From Nitrososphaerota archaeon (lineage in GTDB: Archaea > Thermoproteota > Nitrososphaeria_A > Caldarchaeales > Calditenuaceae): 47,334 nt of DNA. The stretch spans positions 1 through 47,334 of the forward strand of contig JAVQSZ010000008.1 in assembly GCA_033581555.1 (NCBI GenBank), written 5' to 3'. The notes beneath the pieces were generated by a model. That model saw only the letters and a program-made list of their open reading frames with translations, made no database searches and had not been told where the DNA came from. Shown in pieces: positions 1-31,602 of this stretch (position 1 is the stretch's first letter; each line of letters begins with the position of its first letter). Position numbers and translations under genes: made by a program.

Positions 1-801
1 CGCGTGCCTTATCCTCACGTACTGCTCCTCCACGCCCGCGATGTAGAAGAGCTTGTCGAGGCCCAGGTCCCTCAGCGCGATCCCGAGCCTCTGGACCCTC
101 GCGACGTCGGAGTGCCTAGAGGGCGCGCCCCTGACCCTGTAGACGGAGACCCTCTCCGCGAGCTCGGCCCTCCACCCTCCCCCCTCGTTCGGGACCGAGA
201 GCCTCACGTAGTCCGCGTGCGGGTCGATGACGATCACAGTCCCACCTTGCTCTAGGAGCTCCTCCATCATCACCCCCGCGAGGTAGCTCTTCCCGGCCCC
301 GGTCTGAGCGATTATCGCCATGTGCCTCCTCAGGCCCTCCACCGAGAGCCCCACTTCCACGCTCTCCCGGGTCGCTAGCGTCCCGACTCTCAGCTTCTTC
401 CCGCGCCCCGAGTAGAGCTTGCTGAGGAGCTCGTCCGGCGCGACGTAGACCCTAGTCCCGGGGGCGATAGCGTGCCTCGGCCTCGTGCGGACGCTCTGTT
501 CCGGGCTCCTCAGGTCTCCGACGTGCGCCATCACCCTCGCCTCCCGCCAGTGCTTGCAGGTCTCGGCCATCCTCTCGACGAGCCTCGAGATCACCTCGAA
601 GTCCCTCTCCCTCGTCAGCAGGGAGCTGAAGGACGCGACGCCCCTCACCTGGGCCACGACCCATCCGTCCTCGACCCGGGCCACGACGTACTCCCACCTG
701 GGTATCGACGCGGAGGCGTTCGGGTGGACCGCGAAGACGAAGCCCGTCGGGCTGCTCTCCTCGACGACTATCCCCACCTCTCGGAGGGCGTCGGGGTCCA
801 T
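1..801 (-). CDS. herA: HerA-family DNA helicase/translocase, N-terminal part (runs off the left edge; absent from the ORF track)
   Basis: Manual translation from ATG at 801: MDPDALREVGIVVEESSPTGFVFAV...WEYVVA (HAS-barrel-like), then RHMAIIAQTGAGKSY (Walker A) and VIVIDPHADY, typical HerA motifs. Open to position 1 and directly downstream of nurA. Confidence 0.9.
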   Translation of the reverse strand, partial: MDPDALREVGIVVEESSPTGFVFAVHPNASASIPRWEYVVARVEDGWVVAQVRGVASFSSLLTRERDFEVISRLVERMAETCKHWREARVMAHVGDLRSPEQSVRTRPRHAIAPGTRVYVAPDELLSKLYSGRGKKLRVGTLATRESVEVGLSVEGLRRHMAIIAQTGAGKSYLAGVMMEELLEQGGTVIVIDPHADYVRLSVPNEGGGWRAELAERVSVYRVRGAPSRHSDVARVQRLGIALRDLGLDKLFYIAGVEEQYVRIRHA

Positions 802-846
802 GGCTTCCTGCCCCGCCGTCCCCTCGCCCGGTAAAAAGCGCTCGAT

Positions 847-2166
847 TCAGAGGAGGTCGGGTATCGGCCTCCTCGAGAGCTCTAGCACCCCGACCTCCCT
901 CTCGACGAGCTCGACGATCGCCCTCGCGTCCTCCCTCGTGATCCTGGCCCTCCTGTCGGCCTCGAAGAGGAGGGCGTTGTGGATCTCTCTGCTGACGTAC
1001 ATGGACCCGAGCTGGGAGAGCAGATCCTCCAGCCTCTTCATCACTTCCGGGTCCCTCATCGGCTCGAGCGCCGAGACTTCGAAGAACCTCTCCCCTGCTC
1101 CGAGCGAGGCCGCGGTCACGTCAACCCGGATCGGGTAGTCCCTCTCCCCGAACTTCGCGTAAGTCATCACGACCGCGCTCAACGACTTCAGCCCTTCCGC
1201 GACCTCCTGGACCCTGTCCCTCATCTCGACGGGCAGCCTGAGCCTCACCTCCGCGTAGCTGTAGGGGTCTTCATAGGCTTTCTCTATTATCTCTTTGAAC
1301 TTAGAAGAAGGTCCTAAAAGAATGGGAACCGTGTAGCCCTTGCCTTCCGCGACTCCCCGGAGGAGGTGGAGGTCCGTCAAGTTGGTCACCCACTCCTCGA
1401 CCAACGCCCTCAACCGCTCCACCACCCTCCCGTACTTCAACTCCAGGCTTTTGGCCGTACTGACCGCGCGCTGGGGCTTCTCAATCGCGATGGAGAGGAG
1501 CCCCTCAGCCCTCCCCAGGTCCTCGGCCTCGAGCAACCCAGACCTCCTGAGCCTCTCTACCTCCTCGGAGAAGAGCTCCGCGACGCACCAGTCCCTCAGG
1601 AGCGAAGTCGAGGTCGTCTTGCTCAGGGATGCCAGCCCGACCGACCTCCTCTCGCACTCGCCGATCAATCCGGTCAGCTCCGAGTAGAACTCCAAGAGCG
1701 CCTCGCCGTAGCCACTGGGGGCCCTCGCGGGCGTGATCGGCAGCGTAGAGCAGAGGCCGTAGAGGGAGCCGTCGAGGAGGAGAAGCCCACCCTTCGGGAG
1801 CCTCTCCAGCGCCCTCCTCGCTACCCTGAGCTCGAGGACCTTCATGAGGAGCCCCGCGTAGTCGGCCCTGGGCGGATAGGCCACCTCGCACCTCACCTCC
1901 CTCTCCTCTAGGCCCCTCCCGACCGCGAACGCCGTCGCGACGATCAGCGCGCCTCCGTCCCCGAGCCTGAGCCTCATCAGCCCTCCGTCGACTGCGACCG
2001 CCTCGACCCCGGAGCTCCGGCCCTCGAGCCCCGCAGGAACCCAGAGCCTCCTGGCCCTCTCCGCGATCTCCTCCGAGAGCGGCCCCCGTCTGCCCCTAAG
2101 GTCCCTCTCCAGGGAGTCCGAGTTCTCCCTCAGCCACTCCGCCAGCAGGTCAGCGACGAAGGCCAT
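847..2166 (-). CDS. nurA: NurA-family 5'-3' nuclease
   Basis: Motifs AVAVDGG, LLLDGSL, SLSKT and C-terminal HNALLFEADRRARIT; adjacent to herA. Start taken at ATG 2166 (MAFVADLL); the ORF track extends to 2202. Confidence 0.88.
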   Translation of the reverse strand: MAFVADLLAEWLRENSDSLERDLRGRRGPLSEEIAERARRLWVPAGLEGRSSGVEAVAVDGGLMRLRLGDGGALIVATAFAVGRGLEEREVRCEVAYPPRADYAGLLMKVLELRVARRALERLPKGGLLLLDGSLYGLCSTLPITPARAPSGYGEALLEFYSELTGLIGECERRSVGLASLSKTTSTSLLRDWCVAELFSEEVERLRRSGLLEAEDLGRAEGLLSIAIEKPQRAVSTAKSLELKYGRVVERLRALVEEWVTNLTDLHLLRGVAEGKGYTVPILLGPSSKFKEIIEKAYEDPYSYAEVRLRLPVEMRDRVQEVAEGLKSLSAVVMTYAKFGERDYPIRVDVTAASLGAGERFFEVSALEPMRDPEVMKRLEDLLSQLGSMYVSREIHNALLFEADRRARITREDARAIVELVEREVGVLELSRRPIPDLL

Positions 2167-2454
2167 CTCGAGGCCATCATGCTGGGCGCAGAGATAAGGC
2201 ATCGTCCGGCGGCCCCTCGCGTCGACGCCGAGCCTCAGAGCGCGGTCCGAGAATTCCAGGACTCTGGAGACGACTATTCGCAGAGGGGTGCCCTCCTGAC
2301 GCGATCCTGGTTGGGGCTCACCGGGAGCAGACGCCTAAGGACCGAGGACCTACGCCCCGCGACCGATGCTCGGAGTTCCCTCAGATCTTCTGAGCCGGTT
2401 CCGAGCTCCTCGACTTGAATCGCTGGGTTACAACCTCATCGCATTGATCTCAAC

Positions 2455-2490
2455 GAATGTACATATATTGCTTATACTAGAGGGCGTCTT
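2455..2490 (+). promoter_or_regulatory. Probable promoter (AT-rich/TATA-like) of the ABC operon
   Basis: ATGTACATATATTGCTTATAC, an AT-rich patch within ~45 nt upstream of ATG 2499 in a GC-rich background; includes the palindrome ATGTACAT. Confidence 0.45.
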
Positions 2491-2498
2491 GACCGAGG

Positions 2499-4049
2499 AT
2501 GGCGGAGAACAACTATGGGACAATTTTAGAGATTAGGGGACTGGTAAAGAGGTACCCCAACGGCGTTCTGGCTCTCGATCACGTGGACGTCGAGATGAGG
2601 AAGGGAGAGATCCACGCGATCCTCGGTGAGAACGGGGCGGGCAAGACGACGCTCATGAACATACTGTTCGGTTTGCTGCAGCCCGACGAAGGTGAGATCT
2701 ACCTCGACGGCAAGAAGGTCGTCTTCAGGTCGCCCCTCGACGCGATAAACATGGGCATCGGCATGGTCCACCAGAATAGGAAGCTGATACCCGCGCACAC
2801 CGTGTTGGAGAACATCATACTCGGGCACCCGAGGACGGGACGGCTTCTGGACAGAAAGAGGAGCAGGGCAGAGGTGGAGGAGCTGTGCAGGAGGTTCGGG
2901 TTCGACCTCGACCTCGACGCGCGGGTCTGGCAGCTCTCGGCCGGGGAGAAGCAGCTCGTTGAGATCGTCCGTGCCCTCTACAGGGGGGCCAAGATATTGA
3001 TCCTCGACGAGCCGACCTCCGTGCTCACGCCACCTGAGATCGAGAGTTTCTTAGAATCCCTGAAGGCCCTCTCGAGGGAGAAGATCACCTTGGTCCCCTT
3101 CGTGACCCACAAGCTCCCCGAAGTCTTCTCGATATGCGACAAGGTCACCATCTTAAGGAGGGGCAAGGTGGTCAAGACGCTCGACGTCAAGGAGACCACT
3201 GCCAACCAGCTCGCTGAGTACATGGTCGGCAAGGAGGTCTCCCTCTCTATAGAGAGGCAGGACTCCATGTTAGGGCAGGTGGTCCTGAGGGTCGAGAATC
3301 TCTCCGCGATGAACGACAAGGGGCTAATGGCCTTCAGCGGCGTCACCTTCTCACTGCGCGAGGGCGAGATTTTCGGCATAGCGGGCGTCAGCGGGAACGG
3401 ACAGCACGAGCTGGCGGAGACCATCTTCGGCCTGAGGAGGCCCCTCTCCGGCAGGATCCTCTACAACGGTCGCGACATCACTAAGTCCTCGGTTCTCGAG
3501 CGGCTACGGATGGGGATCGCCTACATTCCGCCAGAGCGGCTGGGGGTCGCTGCGATCGGCGAACTGAGCCTCGTCGACAACGTGCTGCTCGCGTACTATT
3601 TCGAGGGCGCGGCGTCGAGGAACGGGTTCGTCAACTACAAGCTCGTAAAGGGTCTGACGGAACGGATCATCTCCGAGTACGGCATCGTCGCCCTCGGGCC
3701 CGCGGCTAAGGCATCGCACTTGTCGGGCGGAAACCTGCAGAGGCTCATCCTCGGCCGCGTCCTCTCCAGGAACCCGAAGATCGTCATCGCAAATCTCCCG
3801 ACGCAGGGGCTCGACGTGGCAGCCGCCCAGTACGTGAGGAGGAAGCTGATGGAGTGCAAGCAGCGCAGAGCCAGCGTGATCCTGATCTCGGAGGACCTCG
3901 ACGAGATATTGCAACTCAGTGACAGAGTAGCTCCCATCTACGAGGGGCGTTTCGTTGACGTCCTCGAGAACGCGGCCCTCCGTAAGGAGGAGGTCGGTGC
4001 GATGATAGCTGGCGCCTACGCCGGGAGGGGGACGGGCCTTGCTCGGTGA
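2499..4049 (+). CDS. ABC transporter ATP-binding protein with tandem ABC domains (CUT2, nucleoside/sugar type)
   Basis: Walker A GENGAGKTT, LSAGEKQ, LILDEPT; degenerate second domain GVSGNGQ / LSGGNLQR / ISEDLDE. Confidence 0.95.
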   Translation: MAENNYGTILEIRGLVKRYPNGVLALDHVDVEMRKGEIHAILGENGAGKTTLMNILFGLLQPDEGEIYLDGKKVVFRSPLDAINMGIGMVHQNRKLIPAHTVLENIILGHPRTGRLLDRKRSRAEVEELCRRFGFDLDLDARVWQLSAGEKQLVEIVRALYRGAKILILDEPTSVLTPPEIESFLESLKALSREKITLVPFVTHKLPEVFSICDKVTILRRGKVVKTLDVKETTANQLAEYMVGKEVSLSIERQDSMLGQVVLRVENLSAMNDKGLMAFSGVTFSLREGEIFGIAGVSGNGQHELAETIFGLRRPLSGRILYNGRDITKSSVLERLRMGIAYIPPERLGVAAIGELSLVDNVLLAYYFEGAASRNGFVNYKLVKGLTERIISEYGIVALGPAAKASHLSGGNLQRLILGRVLSRNPKIVIANLPTQGLDVAAAQYVRRKLMECKQRRASVILISEDLDEILQLSDRVAPIYEGRFVDVLENAALRKEEVGAMIAGAYAGRGTGLAR

Positions 4050-5121
4050 GGCCCACTTCAGGATCAAGCTGGAGAGGCTCCCAACCGTATCAGGTTGGAG
4101 GGCCGTCAGGGTATCGTTTTACTCGATAGCGTTGTCGTTCCTTCTGTTCAGCAGCGTGTTGATGTATGAAGGTTCCGATCCGCTCGTGGCTTATCAGAAC
4201 ATGTTCTCGTTCGCCTTCGATCCCAAGTTGGGACTTCCGCTGACCATTCATAGGTCCATGCTGATCCTCTTGTGTACCCTCGCGTTCATCGTCCCGTTGA
4301 GGGCGGGGCTCTGGAACGTCGGGATGGAGGGGCAGTTCTATCTCGGGACCATCGGAGCCTTCTTCTTTGCTTACACCTTCTCGACCTATCCCTCGGAGAT
4401 TCTGATACCCCTCATGATCTTGGGGGCGACGGGCGGAGGGGCGCTTTACGGGGCCATCGCGGGGTTCTTACGCGGTCGGTACAACGTCAACGAGGTGGTG
4501 GTGTTACTCATGCTCAACAACATAGCGTTCTGGATCGTGTACATGCTGGTGGTCGGCGGTCCGTGGGCGGGGATCGCTGAGTCGTCGAGCAGGCCGTTGC
4601 CCAAGTCTGCCCAGGCCCCGTTCATCTCCATAACGCCCTTCACGAGTTACCTCATCGTTGCCCTCGCGGTGCTCGTCTTCCTCCTCCTCACCAGGACGAC
4701 CTTCGGCTTCAAGCTCCGGGTCCTAGGACACAGCCCCGTGGCCGCGAAGATCGCCGGCATAGAGGAGTTCAAGATCTCTGTCCTCGTGATGAGCGCAGGG
4801 GGTGCTCTAGCTGGTCTAGCTGGCTACCACATGTGGGCGGGTGATCCGGCGTATTATATGATCCCGCGACCGGAGGCATACAAGGCGATAGGCGACCTGA
4901 CCTACTGGGGCATAATAATCGGGCTGGTCTGTCTGCTCAACCCCATTCCCGCAATACCGGCTTCCCTTTTCATGGGCTCTGTCATAGTCGGCTCGACCGT
5001 GCTGGTGAGGAGGCTACGGCTGCCCTTCGGGCTGGACTTCCTGCTGCTTGGGATCATCTCGATAACCTTCGCCGCCTTCCAGCTGTTCTACAACTATAGG
5101 ATCCGGGTGGTCAGGAGATGA
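4039..5121 (+). CDS. ABC transporter permease (BPD_transp_2, nucleoside-type)
   Basis: Multi-TM protein with GLWNVGMEGQFYLG and TTFGFKLRVLGHSPVAAKIAGI; overlaps the ATPase stop. Confidence 0.93.
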   Translation: MLGEAHFRIKLERLPTVSGWRAVRVSFYSIALSFLLFSSVLMYEGSDPLVAYQNMFSFAFDPKLGLPLTIHRSMLILLCTLAFIVPLRAGLWNVGMEGQFYLGTIGAFFFAYTFSTYPSEILIPLMILGATGGGALYGAIAGFLRGRYNVNEVVVLLMLNNIAFWIVYMLVVGGPWAGIAESSSRPLPKSAQAPFISITPFTSYLIVALAVLVFLLLTRTTFGFKLRVLGHSPVAAKIAGIEEFKISVLVMSAGGALAGLAGYHMWAGDPAYYMIPRPEAYKAIGDLTYWGIIIGLVCLLNPIPAIPASLFMGSVIVGSTVLVRRLRLPFGLDFLLLGIISITFAAFQLFYNYRIRVVRR

Positions 5122-6011
5122 TCGAGTTACCTCCTTCGCTCTGGCCCTTCACCACCAGGTTCTTAGAGGTCTCCTCGATCCTGCTCCTCGCGGCCGCCGG
5201 CGAGCTCCTCGCTCAGCGATCGGGCGTGATGAACGTAGGCATCGAGGGCCTCATGCTGTTCGGCGCCGCGACGTCGTTCATGACCGCCCAGCTCTTCGGT
5301 CCGCTCGCAGGGTTCATCGCGGGCTCGCTCGTGGGCGCCCTCCTAGGGCTCTTTCACGCCGTGATGTCGGTCTCGCTGAGGGTCAACCAGATCATCAGCG
5401 GAATGGGGGTCTGGCTGTTCGCGATGGGGTTCGTGACTTACTGGGCTGACAGGTATACCGGTCCTCTCCGGGCGTCGGTCCCGCGCATAGCCGGATTGAC
5501 CCCTGCCCTATTCATCGCGATCGCCGTGATTTTCACGATCTGGTTCGTGTTGAACAAGACGCACTTCGGCCTGAAAATACGGTCCGTGGGGGAGAACCCG
5601 GCAGCCGCCGAGGTCTCCGGTGTGAACGTCAGTAGGGTGAGGTATTTCTGCACGGTAGTCGGCGGCATGCTGGGCGGCCTTGCAGGATCGGTCCTGCTCC
5701 TCTCTTACCTCGGAGCCTGGAGTCATCTACCTACGAAAGGGCTCGGGTGGTTGGCGTTCGGGCTGGTCATGTTCTCGCTCTGGAGGCCTGGAATCCTGCT
5801 GGCTGGGGCGCTCGCCTTCGGCTTTGTCTGGCAGTTCGCGATCTCGCCAGAGTCCGTCTTCCCCGGATTCCCTGCTCCCCTGCCGGTCAACAGGATGCTC
5901 CCGTTCCTAATGACAGTCGTTATACTCACGATAATCTCGACTGAGCGTTTCAGGAGGAAATGGGCTCTGCTGAAACCAGAGGCGCTCGGACAGCCTTACA
6001 TAAAAGAGTGA
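5118..6011 (+). CDS. ABC transporter permease (second subunit)
   Basis: GELLAQRSGVMNVGIEGLML and GLKIRSVGENPAAAEVSGVNV; ATGA overlap with the upstream permease. Confidence 0.93.
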   Translation: MIELPPSLWPFTTRFLEVSSILLLAAAGELLAQRSGVMNVGIEGLMLFGAATSFMTAQLFGPLAGFIAGSLVGALLGLFHAVMSVSLRVNQIISGMGVWLFAMGFVTYWADRYTGPLRASVPRIAGLTPALFIAIAVIFTIWFVLNKTHFGLKIRSVGENPAAAEVSGVNVSRVRYFCTVVGGMLGGLAGSVLLLSYLGAWSHLPTKGLGWLAFGLVMFSLWRPGILLAGALAFGFVWQFAISPESVFPGFPAPLPVNRMLPFLMTVVILTIISTERFRRKWALLKPEALGQPYIKE

Positions 6012-6037
6012 CGAGTTCGAACGTATAAGACCGCGCT

Positions 6038-7384
6038 TTACTTCAGCAACACTATTCCGTCGAGCATGAAGTTGAACCTGCCTAGGAGCCACTCGTCGGT
6101 CGGCATCTCCTTCGCGGGCTTCACCACGGTCCCCTTCGGAGGCACCTTCAGGTTGAGCTCCGGTATCTCGATGCCCTCGCCGCTGCTGACCAGCTCGTGC
6201 TCGTAGAACGGGTCCCAGGCTCCGCTCATCATCTGAGCCCTCCTGAGCTCGATGAGCTTCAGGACCCTCTCGGGGATGAGAGGTCTGGCCCGCGGGCTGA
6301 TCGCCTCGAGTCCCACCTTCATGTTGTTCTGCAGGTCGATCGCCAGCAACCTGGTCTGGCCCGGCATGATAGGGTTGTTCTCCGGGAGCGAGATGTGCGT
6401 GTTCATGCCGAGGAAGTAGATCCTGTCGGGGTTGGTAGTGCCCGCGAGGTACTCCTTCAGGATCCGGTCGAAGAGGACCTCCCACCTGGTGTCGAAGGAC
6501 ACGGCCACGGTGTCGGTGGTGGACCACTTGTAAAGCCCCACTATGTCCATGTCCTTCCCTACGAACCAGATCTTTTTCTCCTCCGCGACCCTGAGGGGCT
6601 CGACCGAGTCCGTGTAGTGGGTCAGGACGTCTACTCCGGCGTCCACCAGCGAGAGCGATACCTCCTTCTCCTTGGGCGGATCGAACCACTCGCCGACGTA
6701 CTTGATGTACAGCGTCGCGTTGGGGTTCGCGTCCTTTATCCCCAGGTAGAACGCGGCCATCCTCCTGAAGTTCTGCACGGCCGCCGGCCCCACCGCTATC
6801 CCGATCCTGTTCCTGCGCGTTATGGCGCCCGCGATCAGGCCCTCGAGGTACATCGCCTGGTACTGTCTGATGAAAACCCTCATGAAGTTCCTTCTCGAGG
6901 AGACGTCGCTCCCGACGATGCCGAGGAAGTAGACGTTGGGGTTTTCGTCGGCTATCCTGTGGAACGCGGGGACTGCTGCGGGTTCCCAGCTCCCGAAGAT
7001 CACGTTGGCCTTGCTGACGGTGATCAGGTCCCTAGCCGCCGATATCGGGTCCTTGCCCTTCAGGATAACGCCCTCGTCGTATACGTAGTCGAACCAGGGG
7101 TAGAGCTTCTTCAACCTCTCCGCGGCCATCACCTGGCGCCCGTCCCACGTCGAGCCCTCGACGTATCCCCCCAGGACCATCCCAAGGACGACCTTCCTGC
7201 CCGCCGGGGCCTCGCGGGCCACTGTCGTCGTGAAGGTCCTCGTCTCGGTCACCGTCCTTGCAGGAGCCGCAGAGCCTCCAGCGAAGTACCCCGCGACAGC
7301 TCCCACAACTCCCGCTCCAACAGCGGTCGCCGCGACCTTTCCAGCCGTAGTTATGGCCTCCCTTCTGGTTACCTTTCTATTCAC
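6038..7384 (-). CDS. BMP-family ABC substrate-binding protein with twin-arginine signal
   Basis: N-terminal VTRREAI plus hydrophobic helix, Thr-rich linker TVTETRTFTTTV, BMP-like motifs YLEGLIAG, AFYLGIKDANP and YVGEWFDPPKEKE. Confidence 0.88.
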   Translation of the reverse strand: MNRKVTRREAITTAGKVAATAVGAGVVGAVAGYFAGGSAAPARTVTETRTFTTTVAREAPAGRKVVLGMVLGGYVEGSTWDGRQVMAAERLKKLYPWFDYVYDEGVILKGKDPISAARDLITVSKANVIFGSWEPAAVPAFHRIADENPNVYFLGIVGSDVSSRRNFMRVFIRQYQAMYLEGLIAGAITRRNRIGIAVGPAAVQNFRRMAAFYLGIKDANPNATLYIKYVGEWFDPPKEKEVSLSLVDAGVDVLTHYTDSVEPLRVAEEKKIWFVGKDMDIVGLYKWSTTDTVAVSFDTRWEVLFDRILKEYLAGTTNPDRIYFLGMNTHISLPENNPIMPGQTRLLAIDLQNNMKVGLEAISPRARPLIPERVLKLIELRRAQMMSGAWDPFYEHELVSSGEGIEIPELNLKVPPKGTVVKPAKEMPTDEWLLGRFNFMLDGIVLLK

Positions 7385-7427
7385 GTGGGCTGCTTTGCGA
7401 CGGTTTTATTTAACCTTTTTACACTAA

Positions 7428-9752
7428 CTAATATCTTCGTCGATTAATAAATTCATAGAGCTTGTGGGGTTGCAGCGGGCTCTCGAGGGGGACGACGGCG
7501 TTGTCGAAGGCGTCCTGCACGGCTGAAGCGATGACCGCAGCTACCGGAATCGCCCCGGCCTCTCCAACGCCCTTCACGCCCAGCGGGTTGAGGGGGGACG
7601 GCGTCTCGATGTGTTTTATGGTTACCTCGGTCGGAGTCTCCAAAGCGGACGGAACGAGGTAATCGGCGAAGCTCGCGGTCAGAGGCTGACCGTTCTCGTC
7701 GTGCACGATCTCCTCGAGCAAGGAGAACCCCAGCCCGTTCGATAGACCTCCGAGGATCTGGCCTTCTACTATCACCGGATTTATGACTTTTCCACAGTCG
7801 TGGACGACTACCATCCTCAATATCTTAACGGCGCCCGTCTCTGGGTCTACCTCCACCTCCGCTGCGGCCCCTCCAGAGGAGAACACCGAGTGGACCGGGC
7901 TGAAGTACTTGGTGGCCTCGAGCCCCGGCTCCCGCTTTATCAGGCCTCTCAGGGGGCGAGAGCGCTCAGCGAGCTCACCAAGGCTAACGGACTTGTCAGG
8001 CACCCCCTTGACGTACACTCGTCCGCCCTCGAACTCCAAATCGTCGGGGCTGGTCTCGAAGATCTGCGCAGCCAGCTCTGCAGCCTTCCTCCTGACCTCC
8101 AGCGCCGCCAGGTAGACCGCGTTCCCGGCCACGGTGGCCGACCTGCTGGCGAACGTCCCAATCCCCCATGACATTTGGGCCGTGTCCCCGACGCTCACGT
8201 CCACGTCGTGCACGTCCACTCCCAGGACCTCTGAGACGATCTGAGCAAAGGTCGTGAACTGACCTTGACCCTGGGTCCCGACGCCAGTCGTGACGCTCAC
8301 CTTGCCCGACGGCGTCACCGTCACCCTTGCCATCTCGTAAGGACCTACCCCACTCCCCTCGACGTAAAGGGCTAGTCCGAGACCGACGAACCTGCCCTCC
8401 CTCCTGTACCTCTCCTTCCGCTCTGGCCATCTCCCGTAGTCTATCGTGTCGAGGAGCGTCTCGAGGAGGAGCGGGTAGTCGCCGCTGTCATACTTAACCG
8501 GCCCGCCGTCCTGATAGATTATGCCCGTGTCGTACGGGAACTCGTCGGGTTGAATGAGGTTCCGCCTCCTTACTTCAGCCCTGTCGAGTCCAAGCCTGTG
8601 TGCAGCTATGTCCATTATCCTCTCCATCACGTAAACGGCCTCCGGCCTTCCGGCACCTCTGACCGGACTTACGACGGTCTTGTTCGTGTAGACCGACGCG
8701 AACTCTACGTCGAACGCCGGAATTTTGTAAGGCCCTGGCATAGTCCCAGTCGTGATGATGGGCACCATTATCCCGTAAGGCGTGTACGCTCCCGTATCGA
8801 CTAGGAAACTGTCGCTCAGTCCCAGTATCTTCCCGTCCCTGCTAAAGGCCGCCTTCACGTAGTGAACCTGTATCCTCTGCTGGTTGGCCGCCATCATGTT
8901 CTCCCTTCTATCCTCTATCCACTTGACGGGACGGCCCAGCCTGATCGCTGCGAAGGGAACGAGGATCTCCTCGGGATAGAACAGCATTATCTTCGGACCG
9001 AACCCGCCGCCCACGTCTGGGGCTATCACCCTCACCCGATTCTCGGGGATTCCGAACAGCTTTGCAAGCCCGTTCCGGATCGGTATGGGAGCCTGAGTGG
9101 AGTCCCAGACCGTCAACGTGTCCGACCTCTCATCGTGGTAAGCCACCACGCCCCTGGTCTCTATGGACGCCCCCGCGCCCCTGTTGAAGACGATCCGCTG
9201 CTCTATCACGAGGTCTGCGCGCCTGAAGGCCTCGGAGACGTCTCCGACCCTCACCCTGTGACGGGCCGCTATGTTGTTGGGAACGTCGTCGTGAACCAGC
9301 GGAGACCCGGGCTGAATCGCCCTCTCAACGTCGACGACGGGTTCCAGCGGATCGTACTCCACGGATATCAGCTCCAGCGCGTCCCTCGCGATGTACCTGT
9401 CCTCGGCGACGACCATCGCGACCGGTTCCCCCACGTAACGCACCTTGTGCTTCGCCAGCGCGTAATGAGTCCTCATGTAAGGGATAGGATATTGGGGCAA
9501 TGGAGTGATCGAGGGGGGAAGAGGCCCGTTCAGGGCCCCCAAGTCCTCGGCCGTATAGACGGCCACCACCCCGTTCAGCCTCTCGGCCCCCGACTTGTCG
9601 ATCGATATTATCCTCGCGTGAGCGTGGGGACTCCTCAGGATCGCGGCGTAAAGCATCCGAGGGAGGACCACGTCATCAACGAACAGGCCCTTCCCCATTA
9701 GGAGCCTCCTGTCCTCCAATCTGGGCACGGAGGCTCCTATTACATTCCTCAT
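7428..9752 (-). CDS. Xanthine dehydrogenase/CoxL(form II)-like molybdopterin-binding large subunit
   Basis: RSPHAHARI, DVGGGFGPK, active-site loop PVRGAGRPEA, GTFASRS, DCGKVINP, GVKGVGEAG; lacks the AYRCSFR motif of form I CO dehydrogenase. Confidence 0.93.
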   Translation of the reverse strand: MRNVIGASVPRLEDRRLLMGKGLFVDDVVLPRMLYAAILRSPHAHARIISIDKSGAERLNGVVAVYTAEDLGALNGPLPPSITPLPQYPIPYMRTHYALAKHKVRYVGEPVAMVVAEDRYIARDALELISVEYDPLEPVVDVERAIQPGSPLVHDDVPNNIAARHRVRVGDVSEAFRRADLVIEQRIVFNRGAGASIETRGVVAYHDERSDTLTVWDSTQAPIPIRNGLAKLFGIPENRVRVIAPDVGGGFGPKIMLFYPEEILVPFAAIRLGRPVKWIEDRRENMMAANQQRIQVHYVKAAFSRDGKILGLSDSFLVDTGAYTPYGIMVPIITTGTMPGPYKIPAFDVEFASVYTNKTVVSPVRGAGRPEAVYVMERIMDIAAHRLGLDRAEVRRRNLIQPDEFPYDTGIIYQDGGPVKYDSGDYPLLLETLLDTIDYGRWPERKERYRREGRFVGLGLALYVEGSGVGPYEMARVTVTPSGKVSVTTGVGTQGQGQFTTFAQIVSEVLGVDVHDVDVSVGDTAQMSWGIGTFASRSATVAGNAVYLAALEVRRKAAELAAQIFETSPDDLEFEGGRVYVKGVPDKSVSLGELAERSRPLRGLIKREPGLEATKYFSPVHSVFSSGGAAAEVEVDPETGAVKILRMVVVHDCGKVINPVIVEGQILGGLSNGLGFSLLEEIVHDENGQPLTASFADYLVPSALETPTEVTIKHIETPSPLNPLGVKGVGEAGAIPVAAVIASAVQDAFDNAVVPLESPLQPHKLYEFINRRRY

Positions 9753-9769
9753 ACGACGCCAGCTGCTGA

Positions 9770-9803
9770 TCCTTTTATTTATGTTTATTTTCTGATATAA
9801 TAG
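9770..9803. promoter_or_regulatory. AT-rich divergent promoter region (Mo subunit / DUF2877)
   Basis: CTTTTATTTATGTTTATTTTCTGATATAATAG lies between two divergent genes. Confidence 0.55.
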
Positions 9804-9804
9804 C

Positions 9805-10803
9805 TTGCGATCGCACTTCGCCTCCGAAGCGGCCTCATACCTCTCTCCGCGAGAACCGCGCGCTCCACGGACTCCTTCTCAGGTGGGCCCCCGAGCTATG
9901 GAACCGAGCTCGGGCGAACCTTTTTCCAGCGAGGGAGTGCGTTACGAGGCGATGACGTTCCGCGCGCTGACTCACGAGGAGGGATACAGGCTCCTGTCGG
10001 AGGGCGGTGGAACGGTTGAGGCTTTGGGAGACAGGGCATCGTATGTGATGACGCCTGTTGAAGAGGTCGTAATACTGACGGACCGGCCGCTGACGTGCTA
10101 TTCGGTCTCCTTCTTCGACGGCTGGAGGGACTTGAGGGGGATCATCGAGGAGGGTGATCGCGTCTCGGTCGAGCGATCGGCGCTGACGGTCGAAGGAAAG
10201 CTCCGGTTGCCGCTGAGGGTGCTGGGAGCTTGTCAGAGGGTATCGGGCTGCTCCGGACTGAGTCCTGAGTCCCTGAGCGCAGCGTATCGTATCTTCCGAG
10301 TGCTCGCCTCCGTCGATGAGCCAGACCCCGTCATCGAGCGGGGTGTGGAGATCCTCTCAAGCAGCACGAGCCTGATCGCGCTCCGCGAGTCTCTGAAGGA
10401 GGTTGTGGGCATGGGTAGAGGGTATACGCCGGTTGGCGACGACTTCGTCTCAGGAGTTATCATCGCCCTCAGGCTTCTTAACCGTGAACTCGACTTCTAT
10501 CCGCTGGTCGAGTACGCAAAATCTCACTCAAGGTGGCCCAGCTGGCGGATGATGGAGCACTCTCTGCACGGGTGCACGTTCTTTCCAGTAGCGCGCTTGT
10601 GTGCCTCCTTCACAAGCGGGTCGGACCCTATGCCTCACCTAACGAGAGGGTTGAGAGTTGGCAGCTCAACAGGAGTCGCCATACTGACAGGACTTCTAGA
10701 GACCCTTCACCTGTATTATAAGAGTTTATCAAGTATGTGTTTGAGTTCGTCTTCTATCTCTACAGGAGGCGTCCACTCGACGTCGACCACTTCGACTCCC
10801 TGA
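9805..10803 (+). CDS. DUF2877 protein (YlbF/AllH-like)
   Basis: VGMGRGYTPVGDDFVSG matches the DUF2877 GxGxGLTPSGDD signature, followed by GSSTG...GL. The true start is probably later (ATG 9898, GTG 9937 or ATG 9952). Confidence 0.8.
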   Translation: MRSHFASEAASYLSPREPRAPRTPSQVGPRAMEPSSGEPFSSEGVRYEAMTFRALTHEEGYRLLSEGGGTVEALGDRASYVMTPVEEVVILTDRPLTCYSVSFFDGWRDLRGIIEEGDRVSVERSALTVEGKLRLPLRVLGACQRVSGCSGLSPESLSAAYRIFRVLASVDEPDPVIERGVEILSSSTSLIALRESLKEVVGMGRGYTPVGDDFVSGVIIALRLLNRELDFYPLVEYAKSHSRWPSWRMMEHSLHGCTFFPVARLCASFTSGSDPMPHLTRGLRVGSSTGVAILTGLLETLHLYYKSLSSMCLSSSSISTGGVHSTSTTSTP

Positions 10804-10871
10804 TCCCTGAGGCTATCGGAGAAAATCGATATACCGAGGCATAATACTTTTTTGACCTCATTCAGAGTCAT
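10716..10871 (-). CDS. 51-aa stand-alone FdrA C-terminal domain protein (not in the ORF track)
   Basis: Manual translation MTLNEVKKVLCLGISIFSDSLRDQGVEVVDVEWTPPVEIEDELKHILDKLL*; ATG overlaps the fdrA stop (ATGA). Resembles the FdrA C-terminus (roughly VINIGL.SF...L..QG..VV...W.PP). Confidence 0.85.
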   Translation of the reverse strand: MTLNEVKKVLCLGISIFSDSLRDQGVEVVDVEWTPPVEIEDELKHILDKLL

Positions 10872-12415
10872 GACACCTCACCCAATATGAAACTCTCGAA
10901 TAGATGATCTAACACCGACGCATCCTCCTTCGCGCAAGCGGCGGTGAATGCCGCAGCCATCGCGTTGGAGCTAGCGAGTATGAGAGGGTACTTCGCGAGC
11001 ATCGACGTCTGAGCCCACTGAGGATCCTCGCTGGTGCCGACGATCCTGATCGCAACCCTCTTACTCGCGTTGGCCTCCAACGCAGGCCCTATCTCCCCTA
11101 AGGTCCTAGAGGTTACGTCTTTCGGAGCTCCGTACCCGATGATTAAGTCAAGCGCGATCGATCCGGTCTCAGGCGACATCAGCTCCTGAGCTATCCGCCT
11201 GTTCCTCAGCGAGGGATCTATTATGGGATGAACCCTGCCAACGGTGAACTCCTCCGACCCGTAATCGACCACAGTTGCCCCCTTCGAGCGCAACGGGTCG
11301 TCGAGCTTTCTGGTCCAAGGCAGTCCTAGATTCGAGTGTACCTCGATTCCCGCCTCGTTCCACAGGAAGGCCGTCTCAGTCGCGAGCGTCCCGCCGCAAA
11401 AGAACCCACGAGGATATCTACCTCCGTCGACCTTCAGTTTGAGCGAGTCCACTTCCTTCTCAAGGGCTGAGAGGGCTCTGATGTAGATTTGAGGCGAAAT
11501 AAGAGAACAGGCTTTCAGCGCTGCTGCGTGTAAGGTTGAGAGCTGTGGATGATCGCTGATCTTCTCTTTATGTCCGAGCAGACATAGCAATAAGGGCTTG
11601 TTGATCCTTATATCTTCTAGAATTCGTCTCACAAGTTCCGCGTCTGACTGCTTAGCTAACAGCGCGACGACCTTCGTGTTCTTGTCCCTGTCCAGGAGCA
11701 TCAACGATTCACGCGTCATCAATCCGCCTACGTCTCTGGTCATGTCGCGTCCTCCCACACCGATCGCGTGGGAGATGCCCACGCCTAAGTCGTGCAGTAT
11801 GACCGACAGCTCCTGAATGCCCGAACCGGACGATGCGACGACTCCCACTGGCCCCCTGATGACCCTGTTTGCGAACCCGAAACCCACGCCCTCGATTATT
11901 GACGTCCCGGCTTCCGGCCCCATCACGAGGAGGTTCCTCGCGGCGGCCTCGCGCTTCATGGCCACCTCTACTTCTATCGGGACGTGGTCGCTGAAGACGA
12001 AGAGGTTGACTCCCTTCTCGAGGAGCTTGAACGCGACGTCCTTCACGTGATGTCCGGGGATCGATATCGACGCCATCCTTATGTCCGGGTTCTCGCGCAG
12101 GGCGTCTTCTACGCTCAGGTATCTGGCGGTTCGGGGCTTCACCTGGAACAGGACCTCTCTGGCGCTCTTCAGAACGTCCTCTGTTAGCCCGACTCCCTTG
12201 AGCGCAATCAGTATGTCGTTTGGCCCTGCACGGTCGCCCTCCGGCGTTAAGATCCCCTGCGACCTCAGGAGGTCCTTGTTGGCTTTGGTGGCCATGACGA
12301 CAGCGACCTCGATCACCCCTGGCAGCCTCTTGATCGCCTCTGAGGCCTCCATCAGCTGCACCGAATCCCGGTAGAGGCCCCGCACCACCAAGTTGATTAC
12401 ATCGACTGAACCCAC
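10868..12415 (-). CDS. fdrA: FdrA-family (AllF-like) protein with succinyl-CoA-synthetase-like fold, lacking its last domain
   Basis: YRDSVQLM, MATKANK, FVFSDHV, LVMGPEAGT, GISHAIGVGGRD, FCGGTLA, EFTVGRVHPIIDP, LDLIIGYG. Start placed at GTG 12415; the ORF track gives 12439. Confidence 0.9.
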   Translation of the reverse strand: MGSVDVINLVVRGLYRDSVQLMEASEAIKRLPGVIEVAVVMATKANKDLLRSQGILTPEGDRAGPNDILIALKGVGLTEDVLKSAREVLFQVKPRTARYLSVEDALRENPDIRMASISIPGHHVKDVAFKLLEKGVNLFVFSDHVPIEVEVAMKREAAARNLLVMGPEAGTSIIEGVGFGFANRVIRGPVGVVASSGSGIQELSVILHDLGVGISHAIGVGGRDMTRDVGGLMTRESLMLLDRDKNTKVVALLAKQSDAELVRRILEDIRINKPLLLCLLGHKEKISDHPQLSTLHAAALKACSLISPQIYIRALSALEKEVDSLKLKVDGGRYPRGFFCGGTLATETAFLWNEAGIEVHSNLGLPWTRKLDDPLRSKGATVVDYGSEEFTVGRVHPIIDPSLRNRRIAQELMSPETGSIALDLIIGYGAPKDVTSRTLGEIGPALEANASKRVAIRIVGTSEDPQWAQTSMLAKYPLILASSNAMAAAFTAACAKEDASVLDHLFESFILGEVS

Positions 12416-12435
12416 GTCAGTCGCGCTCTGGAGGT

Positions 12436-12451
12436 GCAATATTTATATTAG
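12436..12451. promoter_or_regulatory. Compact bidirectional TATA-like element between fdrA and the cyclase gene
   Basis: CAATATTTATATTAG lies about 25-35 nt from both proposed divergent starts (12415 and 12478). Confidence 0.55.
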
Positions 12452-12477
12452 TGTCCCGAGGCGTGATGATCGCGACC

Positions 12478-13275
12478 ATGTCTGCCGTCGTAGATTTATC
12501 AAAGGTGAAAATATATGACTTGTCCCAGCCGACCAGCGCCAGAGCTCCGCCGTTCATGTATTACCCTCCGTTCAAATGGACGTGGATCAAGAGGCTTGGC
12601 GAGCATGGCGTCAACGCGATGTACATCGAGGGGCCGCTTCACACGGGCACACACTTCGACGGCCAGCTGCACTTCATGACCGGAGGGAAGGACATAGCCA
12701 GCATCGACGTCAGCTACTTCATCGGTGAGGGGGTCATAATCGACATCAGCAAGCACGTCGGCGACTACGACATCTATACTAGCGACGTGATCGAAGAAGC
12801 GGCGAGGGAGGCGGGCCTTCAGATAAAGCCCGACGACATACTCCTCATCTACACGGGTTACAGCCGCTACGCATGGTGCGGCCCGGAGCCCGACGAGGTG
12901 CGGTACATGTGCAAGCACCCGGGTCCGGACATCAGGTTCGCGAGGTGGTGCATAGAGAAGAGGATCAGGTGGCTCGGCGTCGACGCGATGTCACAGGACC
13001 ATCCGCTGAACACCGTTGTCAGGAGGGCGAGGCCCGACCTGGTGGCTGAGGCTGAGAGGAAGTGGGGCAAGAAGATCGACGAGGTGTTGCCCTGGCCCGA
13101 GAACTACCAGGTGATGCACGTCATGCTCTTCCCGAGGATGATTCTTCACGTCGAGAACCTGGGCGGGGAGATCGAGAAGGTCGCCAACAGGAGGTGCCTG
13201 ATCATAGCGCTGCCGTTCAAGTTCGAGGGGGGAGAGAGCGCGTACTGCCGAGTGGTGGCCCTCACCGCTGAATGA
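12478..13275 (+). CDS. Cyclase-family (kynurenine formamidase/isatin hydrolase-like) metal-dependent amidohydrolase
   Basis: HTGTHFD metal motif, LLIYTG, HPG, GVDAMSQDHP, HVENL, ALPFKFEGGESAYCRVVA. Confidence 0.92.
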   Translation: MSAVVDLSKVKIYDLSQPTSARAPPFMYYPPFKWTWIKRLGEHGVNAMYIEGPLHTGTHFDGQLHFMTGGKDIASIDVSYFIGEGVIIDISKHVGDYDIYTSDVIEEAAREAGLQIKPDDILLIYTGYSRYAWCGPEPDEVRYMCKHPGPDIRFARWCIEKRIRWLGVDAMSQDHPLNTVVRRARPDLVAEAERKWGKKIDEVLPWPENYQVMHVMLFPRMILHVENLGGEIEKVANRRCLIIALPFKFEGGESAYCRVVALTAE

Positions 13276-13281
13276 GCGGGC

Positions 13282-14544
13282 ATGGAGGCGCTCAAAGAGG
13301 AGATCGAGAAGGCGAACAACAAGTGCCTCGACCTGATGATGGAGGCGAGGCCCCTTCTCGTGGACGTCGTAGAGGCGCGGAAGGTCATACCATTCCTCGC
13401 GAAGGAAAACTGCCTCACGCACGCGGGACCGCCGATCGACTGGGAGAGGGCCAGTGGTCCCCTGAGGGGTGCGATAATCGGGGCCGCGATCTACGAAGGA
13501 TGGGCCGAGAACGAGGAGGAGGCGACCAGGCTCGCGGAGAGGGGTGAGATAGTCCTCGAGCCCAACCACCACCACTCGGCGGTCGGTCCGATGGCTGGCG
13601 TCATATCCCCGTCGATGAAGGTCTTCGTGGTCAGGGATAGCGACCTGAGGACTTACAGTAACCTCAACGAGGGACTTGGGAAGGTCCTGAGATACGGCGC
13701 CTACTCCCCCGACGTGTTAGAACGCCTCCGGTTCCTGAACGAGGTCGTCGGCTCGGTTCTCTCGGAAGCGGTGAAGGAGCACGTCCGCGATAAGGGGGGT
13801 ATAGACTTGAAGAACATAATGGCTCAGGCGGTCCACATGGGCGACGAGTGTCACAACCGGAACGTCGCGTCAACGTCTCTGTTCTACAGAGAGATTTCGC
13901 CCTATGTTATCGACGTGACTGATAGAGAGACGGCCAAAACGGTGCTCAGGACGATAGACTCCAACATCTTGTTCTTCCTGAACATGGCGATGGCGGCCTG
14001 TAAGCTGATGGCTGATAGGGCCCACGGCGTCAGGCACAGCACGATCGTGACCGCGATTGCGAGGAACGGCACGGACATCGGCATCAGGGTGAGTGGGCTC
14101 GGGGACCGGTGGTTCACGGCTCCGGCGACTGTACCGAAGGGGCTGTACTTCCCCGGATTCGGGGAGTCTGACGCTAACCCCGACATAGGCGACAGCACGA
14201 TAACCGAGACCGTCGGACTCGGTGCGGCTGCTCTCGCAGCTAGCCCGGCGATCGTGAAGTTCATCGGCGGGGACGCGAAGACAGCGATCGAGATCACCGA
14301 CAGGATGGCGAAGATCTGTCACGGCAGGCACCGTTACTTCACGATCCCCTACCTCGAGTTCGAGGGTACCCCCACTGGCATAGACATCAGGAGGGTGCTG
14401 CGACTCGGTCTTCCGCCCGTTGCCGACACGGGCATAGCGCACAGGGAGGCAGGGGTGGGGCAGATAGGCGCAGGGATCGTCGAGCTGCCGATCGAGCCCT
14501 TCAAACAGGCCTTGAGGAAGTACGCCGAGGTCTACGGGGTTTGA
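13282..14544 (+). CDS. DUF1116 protein (YlbE/AllG-like)
   Basis: HAGPPI, AVGPMAGVISPSM, LNEGLGKVLRYGA, MGDECHNRN, ARNGTDIGIRVSG, PDIGDSTITETVG, GIAHREAGVGQIGAG. Confidence 0.93.
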   Translation: MEALKEEIEKANNKCLDLMMEARPLLVDVVEARKVIPFLAKENCLTHAGPPIDWERASGPLRGAIIGAAIYEGWAENEEEATRLAERGEIVLEPNHHHSAVGPMAGVISPSMKVFVVRDSDLRTYSNLNEGLGKVLRYGAYSPDVLERLRFLNEVVGSVLSEAVKEHVRDKGGIDLKNIMAQAVHMGDECHNRNVASTSLFYREISPYVIDVTDRETAKTVLRTIDSNILFFLNMAMAACKLMADRAHGVRHSTIVTAIARNGTDIGIRVSGLGDRWFTAPATVPKGLYFPGFGESDANPDIGDSTITETVGLGAAALAASPAIVKFIGGDAKTAIEITDRMAKICHGRHRYFTIPYLEFEGTPTGIDIRRVLRLGLPPVADTGIAHREAGVGQIGAGIVELPIEPFKQALRKYAEVYGV

Positions 14545-14631
14545 ACGCAGCAACTCCGTGCGGCGACCCGCGACCGCCCTTCGGACTCTTCGCCAATCGC
14601 TCGGCGCCTCGCGACGTGATAGATCGCTCGA

Positions 14632-14719
14632 TGGACCGGGCGGGATTCGAACCCGCGACCTCCCGCAATTTGGAATGCCGTCTCGCCAAGCGGGCGATCT
14701 ACCACTGATCTACCGGCCC
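14632..14719 (-). tRNA. tRNA-Ala(GGC) with 16-nt canonical 37/38 intron (14668-14683)
   Basis: Minus strand reads GGGCCGG TA GATC AGTGGTA GATC G CCCGC TT GGC G [AGACGGCATTCCAAAT] T GCGGG AGGTC GCGGG TTCGAAT CCCGC CCGGTCC A. G3:U70 alanine determinant; TTGG/CCAA BHB helix; CCA not encoded. Confidence 0.95.
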
Positions 14720-14793
14720 GCCATCATTTAACATCAGAGCAGAATTTTAGCCTCGCTCTCCGATAGCCTATAAACTCGGTCTATTGGGTGGGC

Positions 14794-16577: not shown

Positions 16578-16682
16578 CCGGATCCTCCCGGATCTATTAA
16601 CAGTTGAGCCGTTCTCTGGGCCACGAGCCGACGTCTCAGCCCCCGAGCGATTTACTTATCCGGCCGGAATCCAGCGACGGTC

Positions 16683-18024: not shown

Positions 18025-18131
18025 ACCCCAGTCGGACTCGGGGCTCAGCCATTAACGTGACTCAACGGTCACCCCCGGACGGTCTAGCCTCCATGGAAAC
18101 TCAAATCTCTGGGCGGTGGGGTGGGTCCGTG

Positions 18132-19315: not shown

Positions 19316-19426
19316 GAACGCCTACCTCTCAAGCACGTCCCTCCCCGACCACTTAAGACTTTCCCGGAGCAATAACTTGATAAGACGGCCGTCCATGCAA
19401 TTCCTCTAGGTTCTGCGGTGGTGATC

Positions 19427-23148: not shown

Positions 23149-23150
23149 AG

Positions 23151-26942: not shown

Positions 26943-26948
26943 ACGCGT

Positions 26949-31193: not shown

Positions 31194-31229
31194 GTTACAG
31201 AGTTCCGAGCGAGTCCTCGGAGCGTTCGC

Positions 31230-31580: not shown

Positions 31581-31602
31581 GTCCCGGACTTCTCCACCGG
31601 TC

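Follow-up and report, generated by a model that had tools for sequence, protein, structure and literature searches.

What is the function of a ten-gene block in an archaeal genome that brings together an ATP-binding cassette (ABC) importer, a molybdenum (Mo) hydroxylase subunit, a metal hydrolase of the cyclase family and relatives of the FdrA, DUF1116 and DUF2877 proteins? The block lies in the window analysed here, a stretch of 47,334 nucleotides that makes up the first 47 kb of contig C8 (JAVQSZ010000008.1) of a Nitrososphaerota archaeon of the order Caldarchaeales, whose genome assembly amounts to 1.43 Mb in 72 contigs and is 90.6% complete. A preliminary description of the sequence had placed ten genes at positions 2499-14544 and read them as a route of import, ring hydroxylation, ring opening and carbamoyl transfer. 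All ten are present at these coordinates, as judged from open reading frames (ORFs), Pfam and NCBIfam, and the scheme itself gains support from the linkage of the genes, from a carbamate kinase encoded in the same genome and from the nearest relative of the binding protein. We regard the general scheme of import, hydroxylation, ring opening and phosphorolysis as probable. The whole statement of an island for the breakdown of an imported N-heterocyclic base, substrate included, is in our judgement evenly poised, and a pyrimidine or barbiturate is our tentative choice of substrate, at somewhat under an even chance.

The block is a single accessory island

Comparison with G024, a genome of the same genus (77% complete), delimits the block as a 12.4-kb accessory island between the NurA gene and a tRNA-Ala gene (window 2170-14631). 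In G024 a NurA match to window 539-2169, at 95.5% identity, is followed by 137 bases, by a match to window 14632-14756 and then by one to 16682-33249 (76-78%); the comparison of the two loci shows no counterpart of window 2170-14631, and neither AllG (the DUF1116 protein) nor the cyclase was found in this 77%-complete genome. The borders of the indel agree almost exactly with the extent given in the preliminary description. In G027, also of the same genus, NurA, cyclase and AllG are spaced as in the window. The right border is formed by tRNA-Ala(GGC) (14632-14719, - strand; called by ARAGORN), the match to which adjoins NurA in G024, and the GC content of the island is 0.597, against 0.636 for the genome and 0.663 and 0.651 for the flanks. 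A search for an att-like repeat of the tRNA at the left border returned a 10-base match only, and no integrase was seen within the block. The block is thus a single self-contained accessory unit, and because it is absent as a unit from G024 and its genes co-occur in other genomes, their association goes beyond chance.

To the left of the island, window 1-2202 (- strand) encodes the usual archaeal end-resection pair, namely NurA nuclease and a HerA-type helicase whose gene is truncated by the start of the contig. The difference in identity to G024 between the left (NurA) flank and the right flank points to either a mosaic neighbourhood or one mixed bin.

A candidate four-part enzyme related to AllFGH

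The FdrA, DUF1116 and DUF2877 families meet in a single characterised enzyme, which converts oxalurate and phosphate to oxamate and carbamoyl phosphate (PMC11326118; here and below, published work is drawn on to the extent of its accessible text). The island's AllG (13282-14544, + strand) matches PF06545 at 301.4 bits against a cut-off of 27, is encoded by a single-copy gene in its genome, shares 45.6% identity over 417 residues with Escherichia coli AllG and 42.9% with E. coli YahG, and has 3clq as its solved relative (E 1.2e-102). The FdrA/AllF-like subunit, which resembles the alpha subunit of succinyl-CoA synthetase (10868-12439, - strand), matches NF004760 at 322 bits (E 5e-96), under the cut-off of 433, and is 36% identical to E. 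coli YahF and 31% to AllF. AllH, the DUF2877 protein (9805-10803, + strand), matches PF11392 at 59 bits (cut-off 25) through residues 201-300, which cover profile positions 2-108 of 109; its BLAST matches are weak (E. coli YahE at 7.7e-4, E. coli AllH at 0.005), and the 3' tail of the gene overlaps a mini-ORF on the opposite strand.

The match of FdrA to NF004760 covers positions 5-499 of the 555 in the profile, and the end of the profile that it lacks is found in a separate 51-codon ORF (10716-10871, - strand), joined to the FdrA gene by an ATGA overlap, whose product matches AllF residues 513-554. The preliminary description had spoken of FdrA in two parts, and two ORFs are indeed present, but the second is a conserved free-standing module rather than a piece of a broken gene. 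By BLAST it matches residues 12-53 of YahG (E 1.7e-9), and when it is combined with 51 locus hits in a profile, the profile recovers YahG 11-53 (1e-16) as well as the C-terminal 42 residues of E. coli AllF (513-554; 2.6e-15). In the 51 loci the module stands free 25 times, as an ORF of 48-85 residues and mostly in archaea, forms the N-terminus of DUF1116 in 23 and the C-terminus of FdrA in 3, so that we take it to be a small mobile subunit. Nor is the split an assembly error, since contigs from three further studies, which also reproduce the gene order, are free of indels at the junction of FdrA and the mini-ORF (X4 record 13 covers window 8624-11669 and X5 record 19 covers 8839-14544).

When AllG and the 51-residue module are modelled as a complex, the score is 0.82, against 0.02 for the best of three controls; the mark applied is attained by 58 of 80 solved complexes and by 2 of 110 mismatched pairs, counts that are no more than approximate here because our own alignments were used. 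The runs share at least 93% of contacts, with a predicted local distance difference test (pLDDT) value of 61-65 for the partner. It is important to note that the score may mirror likeness to natural fusions, as the module is fused to DUF1116 in many proteins.

The CoA-binding (PF02629) and CoA-ligase (PF00549) domains of FdrA, together with a histidine of the ligase domain (His404, in GRxHP) that is invariant in all five aligned sequences, would also suit an ADP-forming enzyme of the acyl-CoA synthetase type acting on a CoA ester of the ring-opened product. We consider this very improbable: the sole characterised member of the family is a carbamoyltransferase (PMC11326118), and carbamate kinase follows AllG in 37 of 50 loci that lack the cyclase and is encoded by 23 of the 25 genomes of the order that have AllG. 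For the GHAGA-type histidine of succinyl-CoA synthetase, the two candidates in FdrA ('SHAIG' and 'LHAAA') were rejected, as neither is conserved in the AllF and YahF proteins of E. coli.

Cyclase-bearing and cyclase-free loci

The predicted ring opener of the island is a cyclase-family metal hydrolase (12451-13275, + strand; PF04199, 123 bits, cut-off 23.1), in which HTGTHFDGQLH aligns with HTGTHIDAPFH of kynurenine formamidase and the histidine/aspartate metal motif is kept. It shares this motif with kynurenine formamidase, isatin hydrolase and dihydrophloroglucinol cyclohydrolase but is otherwise distant from solved members, among the nearest of which is isatin hydrolase (E about 1e-8 over part of the length), and it scores 44 bits against the arylformamidase model, whose cut-off is 223. 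The protein is best classed as a separate PF04199 subfamily tied to AllG. Elsewhere, enzymes of the PF04199 family open cyclic amides (PMC6117287), and one of them, a Mn enzyme, opens a six-membered 1,3-dione ring (PMC10470551).

The tie is seen from both genes. A cyclase relative is present in 30 of 80 AllG-seeded loci (the best 80 of 583 confirmed relatives), in archaea as well as bacteria, and AllG lies within 10 kb in 18 of 29 cyclase-seeded loci. Six duplicate contigs having been dropped, 103 unique loci were compared, 53 of them cyclase-bearing (31 archaeal, 22 bacterial) and 50 cyclase-free; neighbour families were obtained by clustering ORFs and scanning representatives against Pfam and NCBIfam. 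In these counts, which are purely descriptive because contig ends truncate many loci, related genomes do not count as independent and the seeds had been picked for their similarity to the window, the Mo large subunit occurs in 24/53 cyclase-bearing versus 4/50 cyclase-free loci, CoxM in 13/53 versus 0/50, CoxS in 21/53 versus 5/50, an amidase (of the amidase-signature or CN-hydrolase type) in 16/53 versus 2/50, a family-III CoA-transferase in 9/53 versus 0/50, an MmdA-like carboxyltransferase in 14/53 versus 2/50, a conserved 246-residue protein with no Pfam match in 16/53 versus 1/50, and an NCS2 or BMP transporter in 20/53 versus 9/50. The reverse holds for carbamate kinase (5/53 versus 37/50), a ring opener of the cyanuric-acid/barbiturase family (0/53 versus 9/50), isochorismatase (0/53 versus 16/50) and a 574-residue protein (0/53 versus 19/50). 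The genes of the block, treated as one system in the preliminary description, thus co-occur across archaea and bacteria and also, as detailed below, within the Caldarchaeales.

Further neighbours of the cyclase form include genes for a biotin carrier, OAD-beta, thiolase, PucR, XdhC and MobA-like proteins, uracil/xanthine-type permeases, and a cytosine-deaminase-like amidohydrolase that is 24% identical to E. coli YahJ; oxalyl-CoA decarboxylase was found in none of the 103 loci. The ring opener of the cyclase-free loci matches NF052395 at 554 bits, over the cut-off of 360, and that these loci carry a cyanurate/barbiturase-type opener suggests that the cyclase fills the same ring-opening slot.

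A quick maximum-likelihood tree of 83 AllG proteins places the window's AllG with archaeal sequences, in a clade (support 94) of 24 rows, 18 of which have a cyclase nearby, and E. coli AllG groups with 19 rows from cyclase-free loci, 18 of them with carbamate kinase (support 99), a placement that is suggestive rather than firm because of its long branch (0.86). The window's protein therefore appears to lie outside the E. coli AllG clade, though the tree only suggests this.

Some features of these loci stand apart from the island. The roughly 246-residue conserved protein of the fuller clusters (for instance L004 5808-6548, - strand) has no copy in our genome by tblastn, and the 574-residue protein, which matches nothing in Pfam or NCBIfam, is often present in two copies per locus. 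Bacterial loci of FdrA, AllG and carbamate kinase with a cyanuric acid hydrolase and an isochorismatase-type hydrolase (L034 2335-3438, L036 3515-4204, L035 12812-14536) were also encountered, and such bacterial cyclase-free loci may represent a phosphorolytic route for rings of the cyanurate/biuret type.

The molybdenum hydroxylase and its possible partners

The island's Mo hydroxylase large subunit is CoxL/Qor-like (7428-9752, - strand; PF01315, PF02738 and PF20256). Its best NCBIfam model, NF040766 ('aerobic CO dehydrogenase large subunit'), gives 907.7 bits, under the cut-off of 950, TIGR02416 gives 577 bits against a cut-off of 991, and the nearest structures are those of CoxL (8uem), 6-hydroxypseudooxynicotine dehydrogenase (7dqx) and quinoline 2-oxidoreductase (1t3q). 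The first of these models invites the reading that the adjacency is incidental, with a CO or aldehyde dehydrogenase subunit set among unrelated neighbours, and published reconstructions of the Caldarchaeales do treat the CoxL genes of the order as CO dehydrogenases (PMC10547907). The active-site loop of the island's subunit, however, reads VRGAGR at residue 366, and CSFR is absent. A CSFR loop, with its copper-binding cysteine, marks the true form I CoxL CO dehydrogenases. With the best score below its cut-off, the gene gained or lost together with the other nine of the island, and Mo large subunits concentrated in cyclase-bearing loci, we consider an incidental adjacency highly improbable.

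The genome encodes five Mo large subunits in all, against three iron-sulfur (FeS) and three FAD subunits. An orphan CoxM-CoxS pair without an adjoining large subunit (C7:45776-47174) could serve the island's enzyme. For the second Mo enzyme of Caldarchaeum loci no clear orthologue was found, identities to all five large subunits being 30-36%. A sequence-defined uracil/thymine dehydrogenase for reference did not surface in the literature searched, and we know of none.

The importer and its binding protein

The left part of the island encodes a complete importer of the BMP/CUT2 type: a CUT2-like ATPase with two fused ABC domains (2499-4049, + strand; PF00005 at 176.9 bits in 2 stretches), two PF02653 permeases (4039-5121 and 5118-6011, both + strand; 111 and 118 bits) and a substrate-binding protein of the BMP/PnrA family (6038-7384, - strand; PF02608, 85.9 bits). 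Every specific NCBIfam transporter model scores below its own cut-off; the best for the ATPase is NF047930 (446 bits, cut-off 670), and the xylose, arabinose and ribose ATPase models give about 314-348 bits. The binding protein carries, on reading its sequence, an N-terminal RR motif and a membrane anchor, and its gene is co-directional with that of the Mo subunit; an ORF opposite it (6197-7447, + strand) has no family match. Among solved chains the binding protein comes closest to 6pi5 (E 6.1e-20), the atrazine periplasmic binding protein AtzT; on purification AtzT contained bound guanine, and it also binds hydroxyatrazine (PMC6834077). A preference for simple sugars had been named in the preliminary description as speaking against the scheme; this nearest solved relative binds free bases, not sugars.

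Co-occurrence in the Caldarchaeales and later steps in the same genome

Across 76 genomes of the order, with cyclase relatives counted at E 1e-20 or better, AllG is present in 25, the cyclase in 26 and both in 24. The one AllG-only genome, G011 (99% complete), yielded no cyclase relative, and its AllG is split into two adjacent pieces (C3:50164-50644), perhaps the relic of a system in decay; of the two cyclase-only genomes, one holds a 32%-identical paralogue. Carbamate kinase is encoded by 39 of the 76, namely 23 of the 25 AllG-positive and 16 of the 51 AllG-negative genomes. The two AllG-positive genomes without it have completeness values of 59% and 78%. The kinase directly adjoins the cyclase in G041 and G043.

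In the window's own genome, too, a carbamate kinase is encoded (C7:90.3-91.3 kb; 412.7 bits, cut-off 358), a gene that the preliminary description had correctly reported, along with allB, allC and allD, as absent from the block itself. The kinase gene lies directly 3' of a co-directional set of CoxM, CoxS and an XdhA/PucD-like Mo subunit (C7:86602-91301; L091 6602-11301), the last scoring 479 bits, under its cut-off of 784. This placement behind a Mo hydroxylase suggests either that a further route yields a ureide or that the half missing from the island's own route lies here.

A second distant locus, C5:30659-39434 (L094 4659-13434), encodes a family-III CoA-transferase followed directly by an amidase-signature enzyme that is nearest AtzE (382 bits, under the cut-off of 461). 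The pair adjoins a LIV-type ABC importer, with an MmdA-like carboxyltransferase 5 kb away, and its homologues, at 42-49% identity, stand beside the cyclase in three loci of other archaea (L105, L106 and L121), the CoA-transferase alone doing so in a fourth, short one (L107). The associated CoA-transferases share 38-45% identity with the acetyl-CoA:oxalate CoA-transferase YfdE of E. coli (NF008511, 384 bits, cut-off 522).

Several other enzymes were sought in this genome, where absences are provisional because it is 90.6% complete. No AllC and no AllD-family (Ldh_2) protein was found, tblastn with an AtzD-type locus protein gave no hit at E 1e-3, and PF09663 had no match in a search whose control also matched nowhere. 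The best match to oxalyl-CoA decarboxylase reached 149 bits against a cut-off of 739. No true allantoinase was found either: a hit to TIGR03178 (387 bits, cut-off 358) was rejected, as dihydroorotase models score higher (415) and pyrF/pyrE adjoin, and it is best read as a biosynthetic dihydroorotase. Elsewhere, at C2:69-78 kb (L129-L131), three matches of the cyclic-amidohydrolase type fall within 6 kb, one of which reaches 297.6 bits with the allantoinase model without passing the cut-off and might represent a hydantoinase or a dihydropyrimidinase.

Proposed pathway and its alternatives

We propose that the BMP/ABC system would import a free base and that the Mo large subunit would hydroxylate its ring, borrowing its FeS and FAD subunits from another locus, such as the CoxM-CoxS pair of C7. 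The cyclase-family metal hydrolase would open the ring amide to give an N-acylurea, which the four-part enzyme of FdrA, 51-residue module, AllG and AllH would split with phosphate into an amide acid and carbamoyl phosphate, and the C7 carbamate kinase would then convert carbamoyl phosphate and ADP to ATP, NH3 and CO2. For a pyrimidine, uracil (or thymine) would pass by way of barbiturate (or 5-methylbarbiturate) and ureidomalonate to malonamate, and the C5 pair of amidase and family-III CoA-transferase, together with the carboxyltransferase, would carry malonamate through malonate and malonyl-CoA to acetyl-CoA. We infer every substrate, the order of the steps and the sharing of FeS and FAD subunits. 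In its most specific form, a CoxL-like barbiturate maker, a cyclase acting as 'barbiturase' and a four-subunit N-acylurea phosphorylase would make up an ATP-yielding oxidative pyrimidine pathway that spreads among hot-spring archaea as a 12-kb tRNA-side island, a statement to which we give less than an even chance.

Oxalurate is an N-acylurea, and the ureidomalonate that results when the barbiturate ring is opened is its homologue, longer by one carbon. The permeases, cytosine-deaminase-like enzyme, Mo hydroxylase, amidase, CoA-transferase and biotin-type decarboxylase parts found with the cyclase fit a chain from uracil to acetyl-CoA. As the neighbours of the relatives thus indicate a malonyl and not an oxalyl product, oxalurate is not the likeliest substrate.

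It nevertheless defines the chief rival, a true oxalurate/oxamate system in which oxalurate would arise, through the Mo enzyme and the cyclase, from a five-membered ureide (hydantoin, 5-hydroxyhydantoin or parabanate, for instance) or from another purine oxidation product, a cyclic alpha-keto-amide being cleaved as by isatin hydrolase. All three AllFGH families are present, as this rival would have it, AllG is 45.6% identical to its E. coli counterpart, isatin hydrolase is near the cyclase and the CoA-transferases are closest to YfdE. E. coli AllG, however, groups in a different, cyclase-free clade (support 99), and neither the 103 loci nor our genome yielded an oxalyl-CoA decarboxylase. Furthermore, a biotin-type carboxyltransferase, a biotin carrier and OAD-beta, all neighbours of the cyclase form, have by established biochemistry no role with oxalyl-CoA, and AllC, AllD and a true allantoinase were not found in our genome. 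On balance we judge an oxalurate system unlikely.

The same scheme might instead act on another ring, such as an s-triazine, a hydantoin or creatinine derivative, the pyrimidine part of a purine or some unfamiliar thermal-spring heterocycle, with the FdrA complex splitting a different acylurea, for example biuret or allophanate. That the module serves more than one ring is implied by the cyanuric-acid hydrolase (9/50) and isochorismatase-type genes (16/50) of the cyclase-free loci; the C5 amidase is nearest AtzE, and AtzT binds hydroxyatrazine (PMC6834077). Yet the triazine-type partners occur in 0/53 cyclase-bearing loci and were not found in our genome, and the uracil/xanthine-type permeases, PucR and the cytosine-deaminase-like gene go with the cyclase form, so we think it improbable that the island serves such a ring.

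Against the pyrimidine pathway that we prefer weigh several points. No FeS or FAD subunit is encoded beside the island's Mo gene, whose nearest model is named for CO dehydrogenase, and the YfdE likeness of the CoA-transferases suits an oxalyl product no less than it suits a malonyl product. The kinase, amidase, CoA-transferase and carboxyltransferase all lie outside the island, their assignment to the pathway rests on synteny in other organisms, and the C5 carboxyltransferase might instead be part of a central-metabolic carboxylase. Carbamate kinase adjoins the cyclase cluster in a mere 5 of 53 cyclase-bearing loci, within counts that are descriptive throughout. Finally, OAD-beta, an NCS2 permease and a c16 homologue were not found in our genome, with the same proviso about its completeness as above.

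Transcription units and promoter regions

The preliminary description had treated the ten genes as one contiguous block; contiguous they are, but they do not form a single co-directional operon, being arranged in five units over both strands. The ATPase and the two permeases make up the first (2499-6011, + strand), the Mo large subunit followed by the BMP binding protein the second (9752-6038, - strand), AllH alone the third (+ strand), FdrA followed by the 51-codon ORF the fourth (12439-10716, - strand) and cyclase with AllG the fifth (12451-14544, + strand).

Two AT-rich stretches between divergent units look like archaeal TATA regions. The first, between the Mo subunit and AllH (9753-9898), contains TTTTATTTATGTTTATTTT and GATATAATA at about 9772-9802, and the second, between FdrA and the cyclase (12416-12477), contains the TATA-like element AATATTTATATTA at 12437-12449; both are putative promoter regions. 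If they are real, the start codons are probably GTG 12415 for FdrA, ATG 12478 for the cyclase and ATG 9899 or 9952 for AllH. A scan for bacterial promoters and terminators, ill-suited to an archaeon, gave 3 promoter-like sites where 3.0 were expected and 4 terminator-like sites where the expectation was 7.1, and a search for a shared regulatory motif in the three upstream regions and the 3' flank found only 7-9-mers. A sequencing run presumed to be of RNA (X8) contributed no more than three pieces, 162-172 bases long.

Discussion

The system that emerges would be the oxidative pyrimidine pathway crossed with phosphorolysis of the AllFGH type, its chemistry being predicted throughout. Closest to it in composition is E. 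coli AllF-AllG-AllH with AllK (allFGHK; PMC11326118, PMC9843812), which comprises the same three families, the module at the C-terminus of AllF and a catabolic carbamate kinase, and whose predicted chemistry is alike, phosphorolysis of an N-acylurea to carbamoyl phosphate. The island differs in that the module is a separate 51-residue gene, the carbamate kinase is on another contig, and a cyclase, Mo hydroxylase and BMP importer take their place beside the enzyme, with no allB, allC or allD context found. Its AllG, placed outside the E. coli AllG clade, would likely act on ureidomalonate, not oxalurate. The E. coli yahE-yahF-yahG-yahI-yahJ genes, uncharacterised paralogues, likewise encode DUF2877, FdrA-like, DUF1116 and carbamate-kinase-like proteins with an amidohydrolase. 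The island's FdrA is nearer to YahF (36%) than to AllF (31%), and YahG bears the module at its N-terminus, but the stretch of the yah set examined holds no cyclase, Mo enzyme or transporter.

Uracil/thymine dehydrogenase, barbiturase and ureidomalonase are the successive enzymes of the oxidative pyrimidine pathway. Its first two steps are matched in our prediction, from uracil to barbiturate and on to ureidomalonate. In the island, however, a cyclase-family enzyme would replace barbiturase, no member of the barbiturase/AtzD family having been found in our genome, and the ureide is predicted to be split by phosphate to malonamate, with a yield of ATP, rather than hydrolysed to malonate and urea. 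The oxidative pathway is listed as known (bioRxiv 10.1101/2025.05.19.654654). Purine breakdown in gut anaerobes by YgeW and YqeA follows the same logic of a nucleobase ureide, phosphate and ATP from a kinase (bioRxiv 10.1101/2025.04.24.650524); the transferase there, by contrast, is of the ordinary ATCase/OTCase type, and the accessible text of that report mentions neither FdrA, DUF1116 nor a cyclase. The allFGHK genes have also been noted beside triuret genes in nitrifiers (PMC12625717).

Published work on combinations of DUF1116, DUF2877 and FdrA, so far as our searches covered it, includes nothing on archaea or on a link to the cyclase, and among the matches listed for ureidomalonate, barbiturase and malonamate none concerns this set of enzymes. 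The searched literature holds no description of the proposed route, although supplementary material may contain more on allFGH clusters. What is new here is the archaeal form, with its island borders and with the free 51-residue subunit as the archaeal norm, as well as the order-wide co-occurrence and the connection with genes on other contigs of this genome.

Relatives of this DNA are at hand, in that the nearest public relatives of the window's genes are metagenome-assembled genomes of Caldarchaeales and hot-spring metagenomes contain DNA near-identical to the window. The parts of the island are ordinary soluble proteins that can be assayed directly, and its presence or absence between close relatives amounts to a natural experiment in hot springs. 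If the proposal is true, it would also correct the habit of calling every CoxL-like gene of the Caldarchaeales a CO dehydrogenase, and would give functions to a large cyclase subfamily, to the non-enterobacterial FdrA/DUF1116/DUF2877 enzymes and to a small conserved fourth subunit. Pyrimidines are otherwise broken down by the reductive, the Rut and the classical oxidative routes; the one proposed here would be a fourth, and the sole one to conserve energy by substrate-level phosphorylation.

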